From positions 1,570 to 65,569 of IMG/VR virus record IMGVR_UViG_3300048819_000116: DNA of 64,000 nt. One strand, given 5' to 3'. A program made the position numbers and the translations under genes. Source of the stretch: a virus. Its lineage: Duplodnaviria > Caudoviricetes. The notes beneath the pieces were generated by a model, which was not told where the DNA came from, did no database searches, and saw nothing but the letters and a program-made list of their open reading frames with translations. Every line of letters begins with the position of its first letter. Positions within the stretch are counted from its first letter, which is position 1. Positions 15,687 to 38,020 of this stretch are shown here, one piece after another.

Positions 15687-15721
15687 TTCCGGCTTGACCA
15701 GCGTCGCCGCGTCGGCACAGT
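15687..15721 (+). promoter_or_regulatory. promoter with TTCCGGCTTGACCAGC motif; probable leaderless mRNA for the XRE gene
   Basis: TTGACC 15694-15699, 16-nt spacer, CACAGT, ATG 7 nt later; the same 16-mer occurs at 36504. Confidence 0.5.
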
Positions 15722-32000: not shown

Positions 32001-33492
32001 CAAGCTGCGCACCTACCCGCAACTCATGAAGTACGTGCCGAGGGCCTTCCGCGCCATCGAGGCCATGTTCGCCGTGACGCACCGGGAAGCCTACGCGAGG
32101 CTTGCCGCGACGAAGCTCCTGGAGGGCCAGTACAAGGGGGCAGAACTGGCGGCCAAGGTGAAGGAAACGCTCGGCGTCACCCCGCAGCAATTCGAGGTGT
32201 TCCGCCAGCGCGCAGAGGCCGAAGGCTTCAAGGGTGCCGACGCGGGGCTCCGCGTGGCCCAAATGGTTGAGGAGCACCGGGAGGGCAGCGCCGCAGGGCG
32301 CGAGGTGAATGCGGTCTCCGACAAGTACATGCGCGAGGGCGTCTATGCGCAGGAGCCGACCGGGCTCCTCGGCATGATTTACCGCGTGGTGTCCGACGCC
32401 GTGAACAGCAAGGTCAAGGTCGCTGGCATCCCCATACTGAAGCCCGTGATCCCCTTCATGCGGACGCTGACGAACATGGTCAACGAGTCCGTCAATTACA
32501 CGCCGTGGGGGGCCAAGCGGGCGCTGCACGGGCAGTACGACGAGAACCGCGTCTATCAGAAGCCGGAGGGCGACGAGAGGAACCGCCTGCTCGTCAAGTC
32601 GGCGGCGGGAACGATGCTCATGGGCTCCCTCTACAATGCCGCCGTGAACCACGACCCCAAGGACCACACGGGCTTTGCGATCACCGGGGCGGGCCCGAGC
32701 GACTACGCGCACGCGACGCAGCTTCGCCAGCAGGGGGAGCGTGCGCACTCATGGCGCATCGCGGGGAAGTGGTACAACTACATGAACACGCCGCTCGCAG
32801 TGCCGCTGTCCATCATCGGCAACATGGCCGACGCGCACCGTTTCCAGAAGCAGAAGGGCGAGCTTCTTTTTGGCAACAAGGGCGTTGATGCCGTTGCCAG
32901 CGCCCTTGGGCGAAGCATCATCGACCAGCCGATGCTGGAGGGCCTGTCGAACATGGCCGAACTCGCCTCCGGCAAAACGACGCAGGCCAAGATCGGGCGC
33001 TTCCTCGCCAGCTCCGCAGCCTCTGCCGCCATCCCGGCGGATGCGTTGGTCCGCCAAATAGACCAAGCCTTCGACCCCCGGACGCGGGAAGCGAGTTCGC
33101 TTGGGGACATAGCGAAGGCCCAGATTCCCTTTGAGCGGCGGAGCCTGCCCGTCCGCACGGACGCCCTTGGGGACGCGATCACCTACTCCCCCGGTCAGCG
33201 GTTTGTCAGCACGGAGAAGAACGACCCGCTGCGCCGCGCCATGTCGGACCGCAACATCGCGCCCTCCGAGCCCGAGCGCCAGACGAAGCTCGGCAACCGG
33301 ACGATGACCGACAAGGAGTACAACTTCTACAAGACCGTGAGCGGTCGCCTCATAAAGGCGCGGCTTGACGCCCTGCGTCCCGGCTTCTACGGAAAGACGG
33401 ACGCCGCCGTGCAAAACGAGGTGCGCCGGGTCGAGGAAACGGAGAGGAAAAAGGTGAGGGAGCAGATTGGCCGCATGGCGGGCGTACACTAA
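26092..33492 (+). CDS. giant internal virion/ejection (large polyvalent) protein with ParB-like domain
   Basis: 2466 aa; Pro-rich linkers, Gly/Ala hydrophobic segment, DLKPTQ...ILVSKDGYIVDGHHQW (ParB/Srx-like), long helical C-terminal region with IPF.RT..N motif. Confidence 0.7.
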   Translation: MADPADDPDNDARASAAVAEPEEQDAQQQPQAPRGGVPVGPQQAPGTSQADVDQSFAAAGYGKPSAGYTGGPLAPPGTPDTPQVQSPEDRYKEAYGAADKQFSDAYFKANPFKTSFDLPDTPRNWYAAAERAQDQKDALAQRQAQIAERQQALQQRQQRVATATQRENDMRANGQKFFRDPEGNIQPVLEPGTGRPIYDKTPWEEGVDPKTGAPALAMTDQYGQRQFKSFPIVPGGDPNDTQLYYRMPDGTTKPAGDAADLAKSPDYQTAKAARETLKNVHKNQWNEALSGMAEVVGKTKDDIEQANQRLTDLQSQSDQNAQGIAAASADPNLNETQGIFDSSPSDKSLKAQAQLTMLQRQQQAIENERQGLTASLKKGGQLYETNAEAKLQYAIHQDLFRHGAYQHAIDQRAAAITHAGGDPAKDPILQQLQIAQANHASGAASGVTMSAQRAQQRQANPPVAPALPGTPPPDQPPPAGPAAGGAPPAPGSSPAPAPGTPAAPPPSQTGTPTPPPGPAPLVDRFAQTQQGKQPVGILGALISANQRAEKPLPMIGSESAGTKGGLFTIPKVYGTGAIPGILNAANEFTAGLTSPENAALLATTGGAGVVGDIAAGTRLALTVKGAQVAALAGFTAQGAGDTIEKTKAAYTVLHDPKATRADKAKAVAAAILSGAVTAAGAHGTRELATAPKGRVMPESPAAEFHPEAGTDQTGRAAKPTVVPTAATPPPAAPPAAAPPAGEQPSNPATAPGSTPLQPTHAEFTDNSPEAVAARAKANEPQMDPELRAELLKQGVHPPEAPAAAKGSLPPDAKVTYLGKKEPVLKGVGQPEDHWQVALPGEPRGVTVTRSELEKQGIDVSKLPTDEAAKQGEPTNAQETVQRPSESGDNARGPAPQGEPKNPQAVRQADSGGAAAVEAEPPRGNVAPQPDEGAPREGGVSPERGGAPREDVPNAPADARGAERPAEPAGASTPAGGDSGAVGEGVTPKKGEPTWQKFPASEKSLDVPRGEMPQVKSEDRPALVDALKEKGIASKNRMMKVADLKPTQAEFSPEKVQAAREHKGSDRKILVSKDGYIVDGHHQWMADKQDGSDNIPVTQIDAPIRKLLPEVSAFEKAKTGEGPKETRAPEEQPHAVVEKDGKDTKITPTPHAEAAVSKLATPKQIKAQKAFLQDAVAEALKTAKPEADFKAPPRPTFLDPKKQARYDAVAEKAKDPGKVTFSVPGDGEYKIRNTKEAITEFQKRLKSFGGSELRPPTIPAKAVPKLTPEELAEHKVEPEVPGVTTPEKGVVSGSKAEAWADKVIKAGQGKVRSGVSPSEFAAFAVKGVAIAERGVRDFAKWSAEMVKEFGDKIRPHLQDLHDAIMKHAPEEAAQAQKPEPVPGKPGKFYRSLPDTERSANENIVRQVYERRSQKPDLDAAQAIIDHHGPEKAMEIAMARADDGVPYPVKTAIYVRLAKAANDRLMDAKTPEEAAQAIRDRNKLSAIRAPHETEVGQGTSMLQNLQEGERHGAIERHLSDVAQEQDRKLGSDGKKALDESQKAIEDAKEEAIEKASDEIRDKLRTLKIGKPAWEKYREDAGDRIVKMMESPAEAKEQPALKEFTDRVVAEVKGRLKEFMPERPESAPPPTPGDILREALDNKERYGQVLTSVRNAVAKKFGEGTPPVDLLDTELSNLGVTPWSERILTKAVKGAHDAMGEKVSEIAREHLSKTDRKAGDIANALVKDAGISGPDATRLESDLTDRAKELYAAARDKALDDLKKRFTNKGGAGKVFSAVQKAVKLSNLGAMDRADLHDAVVSELGLPKASPERVQKIGQLADKVERAPDAASRARATLDLATELHDAKNPSKMGRHIDTATSLWYANMLSGTTVPIKALGDITNGMLQLATTVIANPAHAGDILKGWASGVPEGLERFASVMKTGRGSIDFDALKGGDTTEKTLPSGKKTVTDPRPVSALENVKDKPGEPVLNKLRTYPQLMKYVPRAFRAIEAMFAVTHREAYARLAATKLLEGQYKGAELAAKVKETLGVTPQQFEVFRQRAEAEGFKGADAGLRVAQMVEEHREGSAAGREVNAVSDKYMREGVYAQEPTGLLGMIYRVVSDAVNSKVKVAGIPILKPVIPFMRTLTNMVNESVNYTPWGAKRALHGQYDENRVYQKPEGDERNRLLVKSAAGTMLMGSLYNAAVNHDPKDHTGFAITGAGPSDYAHATQLRQQGERAHSWRIAGKWYNYMNTPLAVPLSIIGNMADAHRFQKQKGELLFGNKGVDAVASALGRSIIDQPMLEGLSNMAELASGKTTQAKIGRFLASSAASAAIPADALVRQIDQAFDPRTREASSLGDIAKAQIPFERRSLPVRTDALGDAITYSPGQRFVSTEKNDPLRRAMSDRNIAPSEPERQTKLGNRTMTDKEYNFYKTVSGRLIKARLDALRPGFYGKTDAAVQNEVRRVEETERKKVREQIGRMAGVH
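28715..29047 (+). CDS. nested out-of-frame His-rich 110-aa protein
   Basis: AAGGAGA 8 nt before ATG; third codon positions strongly G/C in this frame but often A/T in the host frame. Confidence 0.6.
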   Translation: MPKKLFSALAKAGTTPEAPPPKVSRKTRKLFDKRTVEEQPPSRPNHLAEMSHHSRMKEHHERAAYHRNEAAHHERMFQMHRQMHEVQSVPQNPPGPAHPPGVTAEPSAKG

Positions 33493-33493
33493 T

Positions 33494-35743
33494 ATGGATT
33501 CCCCAACCGCAGACTTCATCCACGACGCCGCGAAGGCGGCAGGGCCGATGCCACCCTCCGACCAGAAGGAGCCGCAGGTGCCGTTCCAGGGGGGCTTGAA
33601 GCTCACCCGGGAGCAGGAGACGCAGATGCTGGACCACGCCTTCCGCAGATTCAAGGACATCAGTAACGAGCTTGGCCGCGACCAGACACTTCAGCCGACT
33701 TGGTGGGCGAACCTCCAGCCGACGCCGAACCTTCAGGCGGCGGCGCAGGGGCTTCTCCCGGCGATGACGTTCCTCGGGAAAAGGAGCCGCTTCGACGCCA
33801 CCTTCATGAACGACGTGTCGTGGAGGCCCTACACGATGGGCGTCGAGAACATCTTCATGTCGTCCAACATCGCGGTGCCGCTCTCCCGGCGCATCTGCGC
33901 CCAGATGATCGCCCGCGCCAAGAAGGCGCTCTTTGGGAGCGACCCGTGGTTCTCCGCCGAACCGTGGCCGGGGCAGGCCGACCCGCTGGAGGACGCGCAG
34001 ATTGACCTCATCGAGCGTTACTGCCGCATGAAGGCCAAGGAGGGAAAGACGAAGGTCAACATGGGCCGCGCCATCACGCAGGCGCTGATCCTCGGCGAGT
34101 GCGCGGTCAAGACGACCTACGTGGTGCGCGACCAGATATTCGACACCGAGGCCCGCGTGCTGGTGGATGTCAACAGCGAGCCCGGCAAGGTTACGCCGAT
34201 GCGCGACCAGAAGGGCAACACGATAACGGAGGACGCCAAGTGGCAGGACAAGGAGGACGGGCTTGGCACGAAGGTCCTTGCCTCCGACGGCGTGACCCCG
34301 CAGCCGGACGCCCCGGTGTACCAGAAGGTGCCGCTCACCCGCCGGCAGGTGCTATTCGAGGGCGCGGTCAGCGAGCCTATCTACTACAAGGACTTTGGCC
34401 TCCCCCAGACGGCGGCAAGCGTGCAGGAGGCCGACACCTGCTACCATATCTACGACAAGCAGGTGGCCGAGTTCGTGGACCTGATCGTGAAGCGCGGGAT
34501 GGTGGACGACAACCCGCAGGGCCGTGCGAGTGCCACGCACAAGATGATCGCGCTCCTTCGCACGCTGGACCAGAACAGCCAGGAGCCCAAGGCCGCGGTG
34601 GACTTGGCCATCCGCCCGCTGGAGTCCATGACGCCGCTCCCCGCCACCCCCGGCGGCGGTCCCGGGCCCGTCGCGGAGTTCATCGAGTTCTACCTCTGGT
34701 GGGACGCGAACGGCGACGGGATCGCGGAGAACATCATGCTGATCGCGGACAGGGCTTCCCAGAAGCCCATCTTCTACGACCACGTTGCCAACGTGACGAC
34801 CGACGGCCTTCGCCCCATCGAGATCGTGAGGATCAAGCCCATCGAGGGCCGCTGGTACGGGCAGGGCATCATGGAGTACTTCGACTGCTACCAGACGATC
34901 GTGGATCTCATGGTGAACCGCTGGAACTTCAGCCAGTCGCGTGCGGGCTACGTCCTGTTCTGGAGCCCGAAGAACACGCTGGAGGGTGACCGCGACCCCT
35001 CGCTCAAGATGAACTTCGGCGGGACGTACACGAAGAAGCAGAACATGAAGGCGGAGGACTGCGTGGAGGTCGTTTACCTGAACGACACCAAGTTCGAGGC
35101 GCTCCACACGATGATCCAGTACTTCATGCAGCTTGCGATGAATGAGAGCGGCGTCACGAACGCGAACGACAATCAGGCGGCGGGGATGCAGTCAGCCAAG
35201 CTGGCGACGGGGATCATGCAGATCGAGCAGTCGGGCGACGAGCTGTTCATGCCGATTCTCGAGGACCTGACCGACCCGCTCACGGGGATACTCAACCGCG
35301 AGATCAGCGTCGTCCTTGCGAACCTTGACCCCGACGAGTTCCGCATCTTCTGCGAGGGCGTGACGGACGGGGTGGACATGATGACGGCGGACGACGTTCG
35401 CGGCCTTCGCCTCCGCTGCGACATCGAGCTAACGACACACAGGAACCAGCAGATTCTCCAGCTTTCGTCGCAGGCGGTCGCGCTCGTGAAGGACTACTAC
35501 ACCAACCCGCCGAACTTGCAACTGATCCTCTGCAACCTCTACCGCAGGCAGCTTCGCATCCTTGACCCGCAGGCGAACGCCGACGAGGTGATCGTGCCGC
35601 AGCAGGGGCCGGTCGGCGCACCCGGCCAGCAGCCTCCGGGCGGCAGCGACATCGGCAACGTCGGCAACGGCGTCGCCCCGGCACAGATGACGCAGGCGGC
35701 AAAGCCTGCCGGCGGCCTGTCGGCGGGGGCGCAGGCGGCATGA
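33494..35743 (+). CDS. portal protein (podovirus-like)
   Basis: 749 aa; WFSAEP, ALILGECAVK, WYGQGIMEY..YQ..VD...NR, SAKLATGI; start moved to ATG 33494. Confidence 0.75.
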   Translation: MDSPTADFIHDAAKAAGPMPPSDQKEPQVPFQGGLKLTREQETQMLDHAFRRFKDISNELGRDQTLQPTWWANLQPTPNLQAAAQGLLPAMTFLGKRSRFDATFMNDVSWRPYTMGVENIFMSSNIAVPLSRRICAQMIARAKKALFGSDPWFSAEPWPGQADPLEDAQIDLIERYCRMKAKEGKTKVNMGRAITQALILGECAVKTTYVVRDQIFDTEARVLVDVNSEPGKVTPMRDQKGNTITEDAKWQDKEDGLGTKVLASDGVTPQPDAPVYQKVPLTRRQVLFEGAVSEPIYYKDFGLPQTAASVQEADTCYHIYDKQVAEFVDLIVKRGMVDDNPQGRASATHKMIALLRTLDQNSQEPKAAVDLAIRPLESMTPLPATPGGGPGPVAEFIEFYLWWDANGDGIAENIMLIADRASQKPIFYDHVANVTTDGLRPIEIVRIKPIEGRWYGQGIMEYFDCYQTIVDLMVNRWNFSQSRAGYVLFWSPKNTLEGDRDPSLKMNFGGTYTKKQNMKAEDCVEVVYLNDTKFEALHTMIQYFMQLAMNESGVTNANDNQAAGMQSAKLATGIMQIEQSGDELFMPILEDLTDPLTGILNREISVVLANLDPDEFRIFCEGVTDGVDMMTADDVRGLRLRCDIELTTHRNQQILQLSSQAVALVKDYYTNPPNLQLILCNLYRRQLRILDPQANADEVIVPQQGPVGAPGQQPPGGSDIGNVGNGVAPAQMTQAAKPAGGLSAGAQAA

Positions 35744-35892
35744 CTTTCACCATCTCGCCGGATGCGCCGGCGCGTGACAGCAGGAAGCTGAAGGGGAAAC
35801 CCAAATTCTAAGGCAACTGCCGCGCTGTTTCATCGGAGGGCAGACCGACTGCCACACGGGCCTCGCGGCCGGGTAGCGACCCCGGCATGGTG

Positions 35893-36108
35893 CTATCTTC
35901 CAAACAGCCGCTTGGTCTTTTTCCTGCCGCCAAGCCCCTTCACGTTCGCGGCGAATCGGGCCATGTGGCGCAGGTGGGGATTGGCCGACTTGAGGGCGCC
36001 GGAGAGTTTGGAGGAGGGGATTTTCTCGCCCGATGGCACCCCGAGGGCGCGGTGAAGGCCGCCCTTGTTTTTCGAGACCCCGCTGGCCTGAATCCAGTTG
36101 TCAGCCAT
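35893..36108 (-). CDS. small basic phage protein (WIQ...GGLHRALGVP.GEKIP family)
   Basis: Recognisable motif; has its own promoter. Confidence 0.7.
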   Translation of the reverse strand: MADNWIQASGVSKNKGGLHRALGVPSGEKIPSSKLSGALKSANPHLRHMARFAANVKGLGGRKKTKRLFGR

Positions 36109-36114
36109 GGGACG

Positions 36115-36144
36115 GTTCTACGACAGGCGCGTGGAGCGAGTCAA
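36115..36144 (-). promoter_or_regulatory. promoter for a leaderless mRNA
   Basis: TTGACT-18 nt-TAGAAC, with ATG 36108 six nt downstream of the -10. Confidence 0.55.
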
Positions 36145-36151
36145 GATGGGG

Positions 36152-36456
36152 TTGATCCCTGAATTGAACGTGCAGGGCGCTACACCTGCGGGCTGTCACG
36201 TCTTGATTTCCAGCGCGTGCTGCTGCGTCTAGTTGGAGGGGCCACCGTAGCGGACACCCGTACAGACCGTTTTGGGACCGGTACCACGTTTGTACAGACG
36301 CCGCGCCCCGGTCCTAGGGCTGGCCTCCGCTGCGGGTACTTCCTTGCCAAGCGACATGGTAGCAACCAGAGCGCCCATGGGAGGGCCGCGCCCCACTCTG
36401 GCGCTGCGTCGTCTGGCAAGGATCGCTTACCCACCTACGTTCAATTCAGGGATCAA
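36152..36456 (-). ncRNA. putative structured ncRNA (~305 nt); alternatively a MITE
   Basis: 20-bp perfect terminal inverted repeat, several internal helices, upstream TTGACA-17-CACCTT promoter; no credible ORF. Confidence 0.5.
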
Positions 36457-36467
36457 AGAACGCCGGG

Positions 36468-36539
36468 AAGGTGCTCTGCCGGACTGCCGCTGTCAACGAA
36501 AGTTTCCGGCTTGACCAGCCTTCCCGCCCCTACCACGCT
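36468..36539. promoter_or_regulatory. back-to-back promoters
   Basis: Minus: TTGACA 36496-36491, 17 nt, CACCTT. Plus: TTGACC 36511-36516, 17 nt, CACGCT, then ATG 36548. Confidence 0.5.
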
Positions 36540-36547
36540 GCCGCCCG

Positions 36548-37693
36548 ATGCACGTTGTCACCCTCCCCGAAGAAATAGTCATCGACGCAGAGCAGACGAT
36601 CAAACCCGGCGAATACCTCTGCGAGGACATCACGGGGGCGCAGCTCATCAACCTATGCGGGGCGGGCAAAATGACGCCCCTCGTTGAGAGCCGCCCCTTC
36701 GACGACAATGCCGACTGGAACGGGAAGTCGGTCGTCATCGTGCGCGTAGGGGGCTTTGGCGACCTTACCAATCTCACCCCCGCCCTGCGCGAGATGAAGC
36801 GGCGCTGGCCGAGAATCGTCCTCACGGTGGCGACCATGCGCGACTACGGCGACGTGATGAAGGGACTCCCCTACGTGGACCACGTGGTGCGTTATCCGCT
36901 CACGAAGGCCGAGCACGCGAAGTACGACGCTTGGGTGTTCCTTGAGAACGCGATCGAGAACAACCCCCGCGCCGAGGACATCCCGATGGCCGACGTGTTC
37001 GCGGAAATGATCGGCATCGCCCACCCGAAGAAGGCGTGGCTCAAGGGGTCGAAGGACGACGTGAGCGAGTGGACGCCGAAGACCAGCGACCGAAAGCCCG
37101 AGTACCGCGTCAGCGACGACGAAGCCGCGTGGGCCAAGGTCCAGTACCCGCGCATCCCCAACGTGCGCCGCCTCTGCGTTCAGGTCGATGCCTCCATGTC
37201 GGGCCTCTGCCGCGTGTACCCCATGCAGCAGCTTGCGACCATCGTCGAGGCGTTCCAGAAGGAGACGGCGTGGGAGGTGTACCTGATCGGACGCAGGGAG
37301 AACCTTGAGCGCGTTCCCGACGGCCCGAACGTGCGCAACCTGTCCAGCCATGGGCTCTCCTTCCGAAAGACCGCCGCCGTGATCCAAGGCGCAAGCTGCT
37401 TCCTTGGCAGCGACTCGGCCTTCATCCACATCGCAGGCGCGCTGGACGTGCCCTCAGTGGGGCTCTTTGGCCCGTTCCCGTGGGCGCTGCGGACGGTCTA
37501 TTCGCCGTCGGTCTTCGGCATCCAGGGGCGCGGTAAATGCAGCCCATGCTTCTTCCACGAGAAGGGCGGGAGCGCCGTGCGCGCCAAGTTCCCCAAGGAC
37601 TGCCCGTCAAGGGAGCAGGGCCTCTGCGAGGTTCTGGCTGGCATCAAGCCCGAGACCGTGATCGCCAAGGTCAAGAAGATGGCGAGGGAGTAG
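36548..37693 (+). CDS. GT9-family (heptosyltransferase-like, GT-B) glycosyltransferase
   Basis: IVRVGGFGDL...ALREMKRRWP; LSFRKTAAVI..ASCFLGSDSAFIHIAGALDVPSVGLFGP. Confidence 0.9.
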   Translation: MHVVTLPEEIVIDAEQTIKPGEYLCEDITGAQLINLCGAGKMTPLVESRPFDDNADWNGKSVVIVRVGGFGDLTNLTPALREMKRRWPRIVLTVATMRDYGDVMKGLPYVDHVVRYPLTKAEHAKYDAWVFLENAIENNPRAEDIPMADVFAEMIGIAHPKKAWLKGSKDDVSEWTPKTSDRKPEYRVSDDEAAWAKVQYPRIPNVRRLCVQVDASMSGLCRVYPMQQLATIVEAFQKETAWEVYLIGRRENLERVPDGPNVRNLSSHGLSFRKTAAVIQGASCFLGSDSAFIHIAGALDVPSVGLFGPFPWALRTVYSPSVFGIQGRGKCSPCFFHEKGGSAVRAKFPKDCPSREQGLCEVLAGIKPETVIAKVKKMARE

Positions 37694-37696
37694 GCT

Positions 37697-38020
37697 GTGA
37701 GCGACCAAGTATTCCAGCCGGGCGACAAGGTGATGCGGGTGAGCGGAAATCGCCCTGATGGGGTTGTGATGAAGTATGAGCGTACATGCCCGCAATACGG
37801 GCAGGTTTACTGCGTCGAGGATTTCTGGCGCGGCCCTCGGTTTAATGTCGTCATGCTGGTTGGGTTCGGCGGCTGGAGATATGACAGCCATGGGCGCAAA
37901 GTCGGATGGGTGGCGTCGGCTTTCCGCAAGGTCGAGGAGATCAAGCTCTGCGTCGAGGCCGTCCGCAAGGTGCCGAAGCCGCTGGAGGAGGTTCCCGCCG
38001 ATGACCCAACAGGACGCTGA
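37697..38020 (+). CDS. SH3-like hypothetical protein
   Basis: FQPGDKVMRV...GQVYCV. Confidence 0.5.
   Translation: MSDQVFQPGDKVMRVSGNRPDGVVMKYERTCPQYGQVYCVEDFWRGPRFNVVMLVGFGGWRYDSHGRKVGWVASAFRKVEEIKLCVEAVRKVPKPLEEVPADDPTGR

Follow-up and report, generated by a model that had tools for sequence, protein, structure and literature searches.

A 305-nt inverted-repeat-bounded unit present or absent as a block between two phage genes: a candidate accessory RNA cassette

Between two divergent genes of a phage from peat lies a 305-nt unit whose ends are perfect inverted copies of each other. Does this locus encode a structured RNA, does it carry a small mobile element, or is it a DNA palindrome without function? 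The original prediction, made from the letters of the DNA, had named the first two readings. We followed it up in the window, a stretch of 64,000 nucleotides that makes up nearly all of an IMG/VR virus record of 65,569 bp that came from peat and is rated complete. The phage genome has a G+C content of about 64% and encodes several glycosyltransferases. The unit sits in a 439-nt gap separating the gene of a 71-aa basic protein (minus strand) from the divergent gene of a family 9 glycosyltransferase (GT9; plus strand), and the features of the locus are listed in Table 1.

Table 1. Features of the locus, in window coordinates
Feature	Position	Strand	Remark
SU10-type portal gene	33467-35743		
71-aa basic protein gene, left neighbor	35893-36108	-	Downstream of the unit on the minus strand
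Promoter-like P1 of the 71-aa gene	36115-36144	-	TTGACT-N18-TAGAAC-N6-ATG, leaderless-type geometry
Inverted-repeat-bounded non-coding unit, allele A	36152-36456	-	305 nt; missing en bloc in empty alleles
Left arm (3' arm of closing stem; left terminal inverted repeat)	36152-36171	-	
Small hairpin GCAGG-N8-CCTGC adjoining the closing stem	36172-36189	-	Two pairs double-changed between alleles
Small hairpin CAGC-N7-GCTG	36211-36225	-	Two pairs double-changed between alleles
Domain I, long irregular hairpin closed by GUGGGUA/UACCCGC	36332-36434	-	Interior replaced in allele B
Right arm (5' arm of closing stem in a minus-strand RNA; right terminal inverted repeat)	36437-36456	-	
Boundary 8-mer AGAACGCC abutting the unit	36457-36464		Common to filled and both empty alleles
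Promoter-like P2	36468-36496	-	-35 TTGACA 36496-36491, 17-nt spacer, -10 CACCTT 36473-36468
GT9 (family 9 glycosyltransferase) gene, right neighbor	36548-37693	+	Promoter motif TTCCGGCTTGAC at 36504-36515

The closing inverted repeat

The perfect 20-bp closing stem that had been predicted is borne out by the sequence: the left arm, TTGATCCCTGAATTGAACGT, is the exact reverse complement of the right arm (20 nt, 100% identity, 265 nt apart). These arms form the sole perfect long-range inverted repeat of at least 14 nt across the 64-kb window, and by our own arithmetic the chance expectation is about 3e-5. Every internal complementary pair named in the original prediction is also present where it had been placed, and so is the minus-strand TTGACA-17-CACCTT, listed as P2 in Table 1. 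The -35 element of the 71-aa gene's promoter follows 7 nt downstream of the end of the left arm.

The unit is present or absent as a block

The allele sample consisted of contigs with GT9 proteins of at least 90% identity and contigs encoding the 71-aa protein. The filled allele A was carried by the window, L016/L004, L017/L005 and L041, with differences at 1-2 positions, and the filled allele B by L037 (1131-1422, 292 nt) and L043. An empty allele, E1, in which the gap measures 82 nt versus 439 nt, was found in L038, L039, L048 and L049, and by gene coordinates also in the P0002 contig and in the Logan contig encoding P0092, a protein that is also recorded on a 66.9-kb contig. The 71-aa protein of L049 is identical to that of the window.

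A second empty allele, E2, was found in L044 and L045. On the minus strand it reads GGCGTTCT followed directly by CCATCTTGACT, and the filled alleles read GGCGTTCT, the unit, C(C) and CCATCTTGACT. The difference between E2 and the filled sequences is therefore exactly the inverted-repeat-bounded unit plus 1-2 C, the extra bases standing at the left junction of the filled allele. The comparison shows that the cassette has been exchanged, gained or lost as a block and that the ends of this block coincide with the inverted repeat. It also shows that the unit is dispensable for this phage, as near-identical phages carry an empty site. Since near-identical phages lack it, the unit does not serve as an origin or packaging site, nor as an essential regulator, and an essential origin or pac site was rejected as a candidate on this ground.

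One filled copy is incomplete. In L043 (1-38, reverse strand) the allele-B copy leaves the unit after GCTTACC (about 36431) and continues into unrelated sequence with a CTTGAC box; the right arm and P2 are missing, and only 38 nt are available. Either recombination cut this copy within the unit or the break is an assembly end.

Alternative contents of the slot

Among relatives, the slot that lies between the portal gene and GT9 holds one of at least five different contents. The different contents indicate that the slot is a mosaic hot spot and, again, that the unit is dispensable. In L040 another gene occupies the slot. Among more distant relatives, L019 has a small reverse ORF there and L018 has coding genes; no homologue of the unit was found in such relatives. 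The slot of L022, a 510-nt gap without an ORF, was rejected as a homologue, its fold giving z-scores of +0.50 and -0.68 against shuffled sequences.

The replacement in L040, a relative at 90% identity or higher, covers its positions 1-156, where a different upstream sequence with a plus-strand ORF stands in place of the 71-aa gene and the unit. Homology resumes at the GT9 TTCCGGCTTGAC box, which marks the GT9 promoter as a recombination boundary. The 71-aa protein (MADNWI...KRLFGR) has relatives of 36-70% identity in at least 12 otherwise unrelated viral contigs of 6-103 kb, and Pfam and PHROG give no family for it. No comparable repeat was found upstream of the relatives of its gene in other phages.

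A slot of this kind could produce a palindrome without any function. The unit would then be left over from illegitimate recombination at a hyper-mosaic place between genes, its arms kept complementary by intrastrand templated correction and its loss caused by replication slippage at the base of the hairpin. We regard this as unlikely, though it accounts for part of the evidence. The hot spot with its five or more alternative contents speaks for it, and the L043 copy, cut off within the unit and without a right arm, agrees with it. Against it, the deletion end points, in the comparison of E2 with the filled alleles, have no flanking microhomology.

The unit is non-coding and matches no known RNA family

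The claim that the unit is non-coding held up in the comparison of alleles A and B, in which no frame had an excess of synonymous change. A plus-strand frame and a minus-strand ORF of 48-50 codons are open in both alleles, yet neither shows coding constraint, and a coding ORF was rejected. At most 6 of 25 changed codons were synonymous in any frame on either strand, 76-92% of the changed codons being non-synonymous in every frame. The A/B substitutions showed no 3-nt periodicity, and the 13-nt length difference of the variable domain shifts the reading frame.

The absence of known RNA hallmarks was likewise confirmed. A search of both strands of the window and its relatives matched no Rfam family at the gathering score; RNase P, tmRNA, 6S, Y RNA, group I/II introns, ribozymes, riboswitches and GOLLD/ROOL were among the families covered. 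With E-values of up to 10 allowed, the search returned only noise (E 0.3-10; 10.7-16.4 bits versus cut-offs of 36.5-50). A scan for tRNA and tmRNA genes found none. A retron was rejected, as the reverse transcriptase model PF00078 had no match in the 65.6-kb genome.

Other copies and the signs of a mobile element

The second reading in the original prediction was a MITE with 14-bp terminal inverted repeats, a GATC target duplication and a TTGATCAA empty site. To search for other copies, we scanned IMG/VR for exact patterns of the 18-nt arm, a degenerate arm and a 20-nt interior block, JGI metagenomes for the interior block, and 185,579 species genomes (one each) for the 18-nt arm. The scans matched only close relatives at the same locus, plus chance-level singletons with unrelated flanks. 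Only one relative was matched in the JGI metagenomes, and the species genomes gave 10 singleton 18-mer matches with unrelated flanks, where we estimate a chance expectation of about 17. Arm matches in five other viral contigs were set aside as chance because their flanks are unrelated, and a match of L042 to the 20-mer was set aside for its unrelated context. GenBank phage records held nothing similar to the unit.

The exact-pattern scans of viral, prokaryotic and metagenome collections thus revealed none of the dispersed copies that a MITE would have led one to look for. The unit occurs once in the phage genome, and in all 8 carrier contigs it stands between the 71-aa gene and GT9, so that the collections scanned hold a single locus and no independent sites.

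The empty sites also speak to the MITE model. E2 joins GGCGTTCT to CCATC without a direct repeat, a TTGATCAA or a GATC, so there is no target-site duplication around the unit, and the E1 sites likewise show no duplication and no TTGATCAA. The model of 14-bp repeats fails because the 20-bp arms are missing in full from the empty sites, which also have no TTGATCAA. The GATC-duplication MITE model is refuted; the only defining MITE feature found is the repeats themselves, 20-bp perfect terminal inverted repeats with the indel boundaries at their outer ends.

A broader form of the mobile reading is a non-autonomous inverted-repeat-bounded element, MITE- or MPME-like, inserted between two promoters. 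The arms would be transposase-binding ends, and any transcript would be incidental read-through from P2. The presence/absence boundaries fall at the outer repeat ends to within 1-2 C, the unit is small and non-coding, and its interior evolves neutrally (see below), all of which speaks for such an element. The mycobacteriophage elements called MPMEs are alike in having inverted repeats, no target duplication and extra junction bases (PMC3029335). On the other side, there is one copy per genome, both alleles occupy the same site in every carrier, and the arm and interior patterns occur at this locus only, with chance singletons elsewhere. Neither a target-site duplication nor a TTGATCAA empty site accompanies the unit, and a hairpin-guided deletion could equally yield the empty allele. 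We therefore consider a mobile element of this kind improbable, at about the same level as the functionless palindrome.

The genes of the phage point in the same direction. Four Pfam models (resolvase, phage integrase, RVT_1 and Y1_Tnp) had no match in the phage, which counts against the mobile element, and no transposase domain was found among the 27 phage ORFs scanned. An inverton was rejected because the phage has no serine or tyrosine recombinase and the unit has the same orientation in all assembled carriers; contigs of four runs contained no strand-changing joints, contigs being assemblies that drop rare variants. An element of the IS200/IS605-type PATE kind was rejected because the Y1 transposase is absent from the phage. 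The target of ISDra2 is TTGAT, and the first bases of the unit match TTGAT. To our knowledge, IS200/IS605-type elements have no long terminal repeats, and the match is for this reason a lead only.

The fold of the unit

To explore the fold of the unit, we compared it with shuffled sequences. The fold of the whole unit was more stable than the shuffles on both strands (z -5.05 and -4.81). The 265-nt interior alone showed no extra stability (z -0.63 on the plus strand and +0.06 on the minus strand). Because the interior alone is no better than shuffles, the fold signal of the whole unit is that of the closing stem. The only interior sub-domain with unusual stability was domain I (z -3.7 on the minus strand and -4.1 on the plus strand), which contains the pairs CCTTGCCA/TGGCAAGG, CCAGAG/CTCTGG and GGGTA/TACCC. 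The internal pairs of the original prediction survived in part: CCAGAG/CTCTGG and GGGTA/TACCC lie in this stable sub-domain, and CGCTAC/GTAGCG is not kept in allele B. The GGAGG and CCTCC blocks, which had been proposed as pseudoknot partners, are invariant across the alleles.

In allele B, the interior of domain I, about 100 nt in length, is swapped for unalignable sequence that is 13 nt shorter, and a hairpin is formed again. On the minus strand, the z-score of domain I was -3.67 in allele A and -2.76 in allele B; on the plus strand it was -4.06 in allele A and only -1.06 in allele B. In the closing helix of the domain, a U.G pair of allele A becomes C-G in allele B on the minus strand; on the plus strand this would be A.C. 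A functionless palindrome leaves unexplained why the replaced domain is still a hairpin in both alleles and why it is strand-asymmetric.

All 20 pairs of the closing stem of allele A are Watson-Crick, with no G.U. This counts in favor of the palindrome and against an RNA cassette, since the complete absence of G.U pairs is commoner in DNA-level repeats than in RNA helices.

Divergence between the filled alleles

In the alignable interior, about 20% of positions distinguish allele A from allele B, and the GT9 genes of the window and L037 differ at 24% of fourfold-degenerate sites. The similar values suggest that the primary sequence of the interior is near neutral. Near-neutral divergence and the lack of unusual interior stability agree with a palindrome without function. 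Conserved A/B blocks of 16-22 nt were rejected as signs of constraint, such blocks being expected by chance at 20% divergence by our own arithmetic. Allele A is near-invariant not only within the unit but also in the promoter region beside it and in the first part of GT9, and since the near-identity extends into the flanks and GT9, we attribute it to recent recombination tracts and not to constraint.

The arms are more conserved, with 3 of 40 positions differing between A and B (binomial P = 0.03), and the closing stem has 20 of 20 complementary positions in A and 19 of 20 in B. In allele B, 36437 A>C occurs together with 36171 T>G, a compensatory change that turns the innermost pair from U-A into G-C; 36447 C>A leaves one mismatch. 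A compensatory change in both arms is unexpected of transposase-binding ends and weighs against the mobile element. Read on the minus strand, the L016 variant 36168 A>G makes an A.C mismatch; read on the plus strand it makes a G.U pair, so that this arm variant fits the plus strand better and stands against a minus-strand RNA. DNA run X4 adds a third allele of the right end, marked by 36437 A>C together with 36440 T>C, its left arm unseen. The C at 36440 in X4, opposite the G at 36168 in L016, may be a second compensatory pair.

The two small hairpins also have pairs changed on both sides. In hairpin 36172-36189 an A-U pair became C-G and a G-C pair became A-U, and in hairpin 36211-36225 a C-G pair became U-A and an A-U pair became G-C, with one further pair becoming a wobble. 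The consensus fold of the 160 alignable interior nucleotides gave z -2.2 against column shuffles on the minus strand (5/300) and z -1.8 on the plus strand (18/300). The consensus structure has 7 double-changed pairs and 99.2% of cells paired, versus 1.8 in shuffles and 0-1 in slid controls, a count that leans toward the structure because it was fitted to the same sequences that it scores. Counted without bias in every helix common to both alleles, compensatory pairs were no more frequent than in column shuffles, at 9 on the plus strand (null 9.5) and 7 on the minus strand (null 7.2). All the covariation figures rest on two diverged alleles.

Promoter-like sites around the unit

P2 would start transcription at about 36459-36461, 3-5 nt before the stem. 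In allele B its -35 element is TTGACG, the -10 element is identical and the spacer is still 17 nt. Within the spacer 6 of 17 bases differ between A and B, and from the -10 element to the stem all 11 nt are unchanged. This is the pattern of conservation expected of a working promoter, and the geometry of P2 is that of the other promoter-like sites of the phage: CTTGAC(C/T), 17-18 nt and a hexamer 6-9 nt before an ATG. On the opposite strand, the unit has a single CTTGAT box, which is disrupted in allele B. A functionless palindrome leaves unexplained why the P2 hexamers, which point at the stem, are conserved.

Along the minus strand, P2 is followed by the unit, P1 and the 71-aa gene, and no terminator-like site lies between them; past the stem, no recognizable terminator was found. 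This arrangement would suit a cis-acting structured 5' leader, in which a P2 transcript runs through the unit into the 71-aa gene and its fold controls mRNA stability, processing or translation, beside a leaderless transcript from P1. However, in every allele the 71-aa gene has its own full promoter at leaderless distance, P1 being kept in the E2 allele and in allele B, and the gene is identical in phages without the unit. We consider a leader distinctly unlikely.

Contigs in RNA libraries

The stretch around the locus occurs in metagenomes from peat, from lake or freshwater and from soil, and in part in six RNA libraries from peat. The contigs of four runs were compared with a 1.3-kb stretch; those of the RNA libraries are of low depth and strandless, and DNA carry-over is possible. 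Two peat RNA libraries from different studies (X16 and X17) contained a single contig each, and both contigs lie inside the unit. They span 36195-36426 and 36227-36427 and stop within 1 nt of each other, at a place where the contig of a DNA run continues. The confinement of these RNA-library contigs to the unit interior is a weak hint of transcription, and it is left unexplained by a palindrome without function.

In the third RNA library, X10, the flanks were covered and the unit interior was uncovered; such holes in contig cover, the X10 interior and the X16 and X17 flanks alike, prove nothing. One X10 contig (35839-36167) runs from the 71-aa gene into the 3' arm, joining the two as a leader would. 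Its end at 36167 was rejected as an RNA end: it lies one base before the A/G polymorphism at 36168, where a 31-mer assembly graph breaks, so that the end is an assembly break. The contig is therefore silent on RNA ends.

A candidate accessory RNA cassette

Taken with the block-wise presence and absence of the unit, the retained stem, the domain I hairpin, the conserved P2 and the strand asymmetry favor an RNA cassette. Our best explanation, which we hold tentatively as quite possible, is that the unit encodes, on the minus strand, a structured accessory RNA of about 300 nt, in a cassette that is dispensable, non-coding and promoter-driven. Transcription would begin at the sigma-70-like P2, its start a few bases beyond the stem. 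The two ends of the RNA would pair over 20 bp and close a multi-branched fold holding one long, sequence-variable hairpin (domain I) and several short hairpins. The terminal 20-bp duplex may protect both termini or act as an RNase III-type processing site, and processing at the stem would free the RNA from read-through into the 71-aa gene, which has its own P1. As to function, an accessory regulatory or host-interference RNA would be our guess. Against such a cassette stand the ordinary stability of the interior as a whole, its near-neutral primary sequence, the missing terminator past the stem and the negative search for homologues in more distant relatives.

The ncRNA claim of the original prediction stands in some parts. 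The hexamers and spacing of P2, the closing stem with one compensatory pair and the kept hairpin of domain I support it, as do the RNA contigs that cover the interior. The covariation, at 9 versus 9.5 and 7 versus 7.2 under the null, is not decisive.

The RNA and mobile readings could also be combined. The unit would then be a new ultra-small phage mobile unit, a self-contained RNA gene, made up of a promoter and a hairpin-closed RNA of about 300 nt, whose 20-bp duplex is both the RNA stem and a DNA insertion/excision signal, with neither a target duplication nor a transposase of its own. We rate this combination as very unlikely.

If the minus-strand RNA is real, it would represent an unclassified family of phage accessory RNAs in a lineage of phages of about 65 kb, and natural isogenic genomes with and without the unit exist as a ready comparison for the role of the RNA. 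The clean gain or loss of an inverted-repeat-bounded unit, with no duplication left behind, is also relevant to the movement of small non-coding modules among phage genomes. If the unit is only a palindromic relic, it would be an ordinary by-product of mosaic recombination.

Comparison with known systems

The phi29 pRNA and Y-RNA-like RNAs are structured phage or bacterial ncRNAs in which the 5' and 3' ends pair, and stems processed by RNase III flank rRNAs and T7 early RNAs. The candidate RNA would share with end-paired phage ncRNAs a promoter of its own, a terminal duplex and variable peripheral hairpins on a conserved scaffold. Its stem, however, is longer and more perfect, it has no Rfam match, and no partner protein has been identified. 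Retron msr-msd RNAs resemble the unit in being ncRNAs of 150-300 nt with an a1/a2 inverted-repeat stem at their ends and a strain-variable accessory distribution; unlike a retron, the unit resides in a phage genome without a reverse transcriptase, and the downstream gene encodes the 71-aa basic protein.

With MITEs the unit shares a length of about 300 bp, the lack of coding sequence, perfect terminal inverted repeats, boundaries at the repeat ends and a presence that varies among close relatives. In contrast to MITEs, it has no target-site duplication, no dispersed copies in the collections searched and no cognate transposase, it stands at one locus, its arms show a compensatory double change, and a conserved promoter is aimed into it.

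In MPMEs the repeats are imperfect and short, about 11 bp, and a small ORF is present. The unit has no constrained ORF, perfect 20-bp arms and a single site, and in these points it differs from them; it is like them in being phage-borne, a few hundred base pairs long, bounded by inverted repeats, free of a duplication and accompanied by extra bases at one junction. MPME1 and MPME2 are mycobacteriophage elements of 439-440 bp found at different sites in different phages, with inverted repeats, precise insertion without duplication and a few extra bases at one junction, and they are absent from near-identical sister phages (PMC3029335).

Other cassettes and promoter-like repeats

Further indels were seen near the locus. 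A 311-nt segment right after the GT9 stop codon (37690-38000) is absent from L016, L037, L038, L040 and L041, in which GT9 overlaps the next gene by ATGA, and in L017 the place is taken by 708 nt. The segment reads in the window as an additional small ORF with an ATGA overlap at its end. No repeats flank this cassette indel, which is the size of a gene. Two more cassette indels lie on the other side of the unit: at 35743/35744, the end of the portal gene, where L017/L021 carry an additional 487 nt, and at 35892/35893, where L016 has 1,544 extra nt directly past the stop codon of the 71-aa gene.

Promoter-like repeats occur in the window at 15693, 25758, 36510, 53547 and 54130 on the plus strand and at 36145 on the minus strand. 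They consist of CTTGAC(C/T), 17-18 nt and a hexamer, with 6-20 nt to an ATG and without a Shine-Dalgarno sequence. This arrangement suggests that many mRNAs of the phage may be leaderless or near-leaderless and that the host would translate such mRNAs. The longer box TTCCGGCTTGAC is present at three sites (15687, 36504 and 54124).
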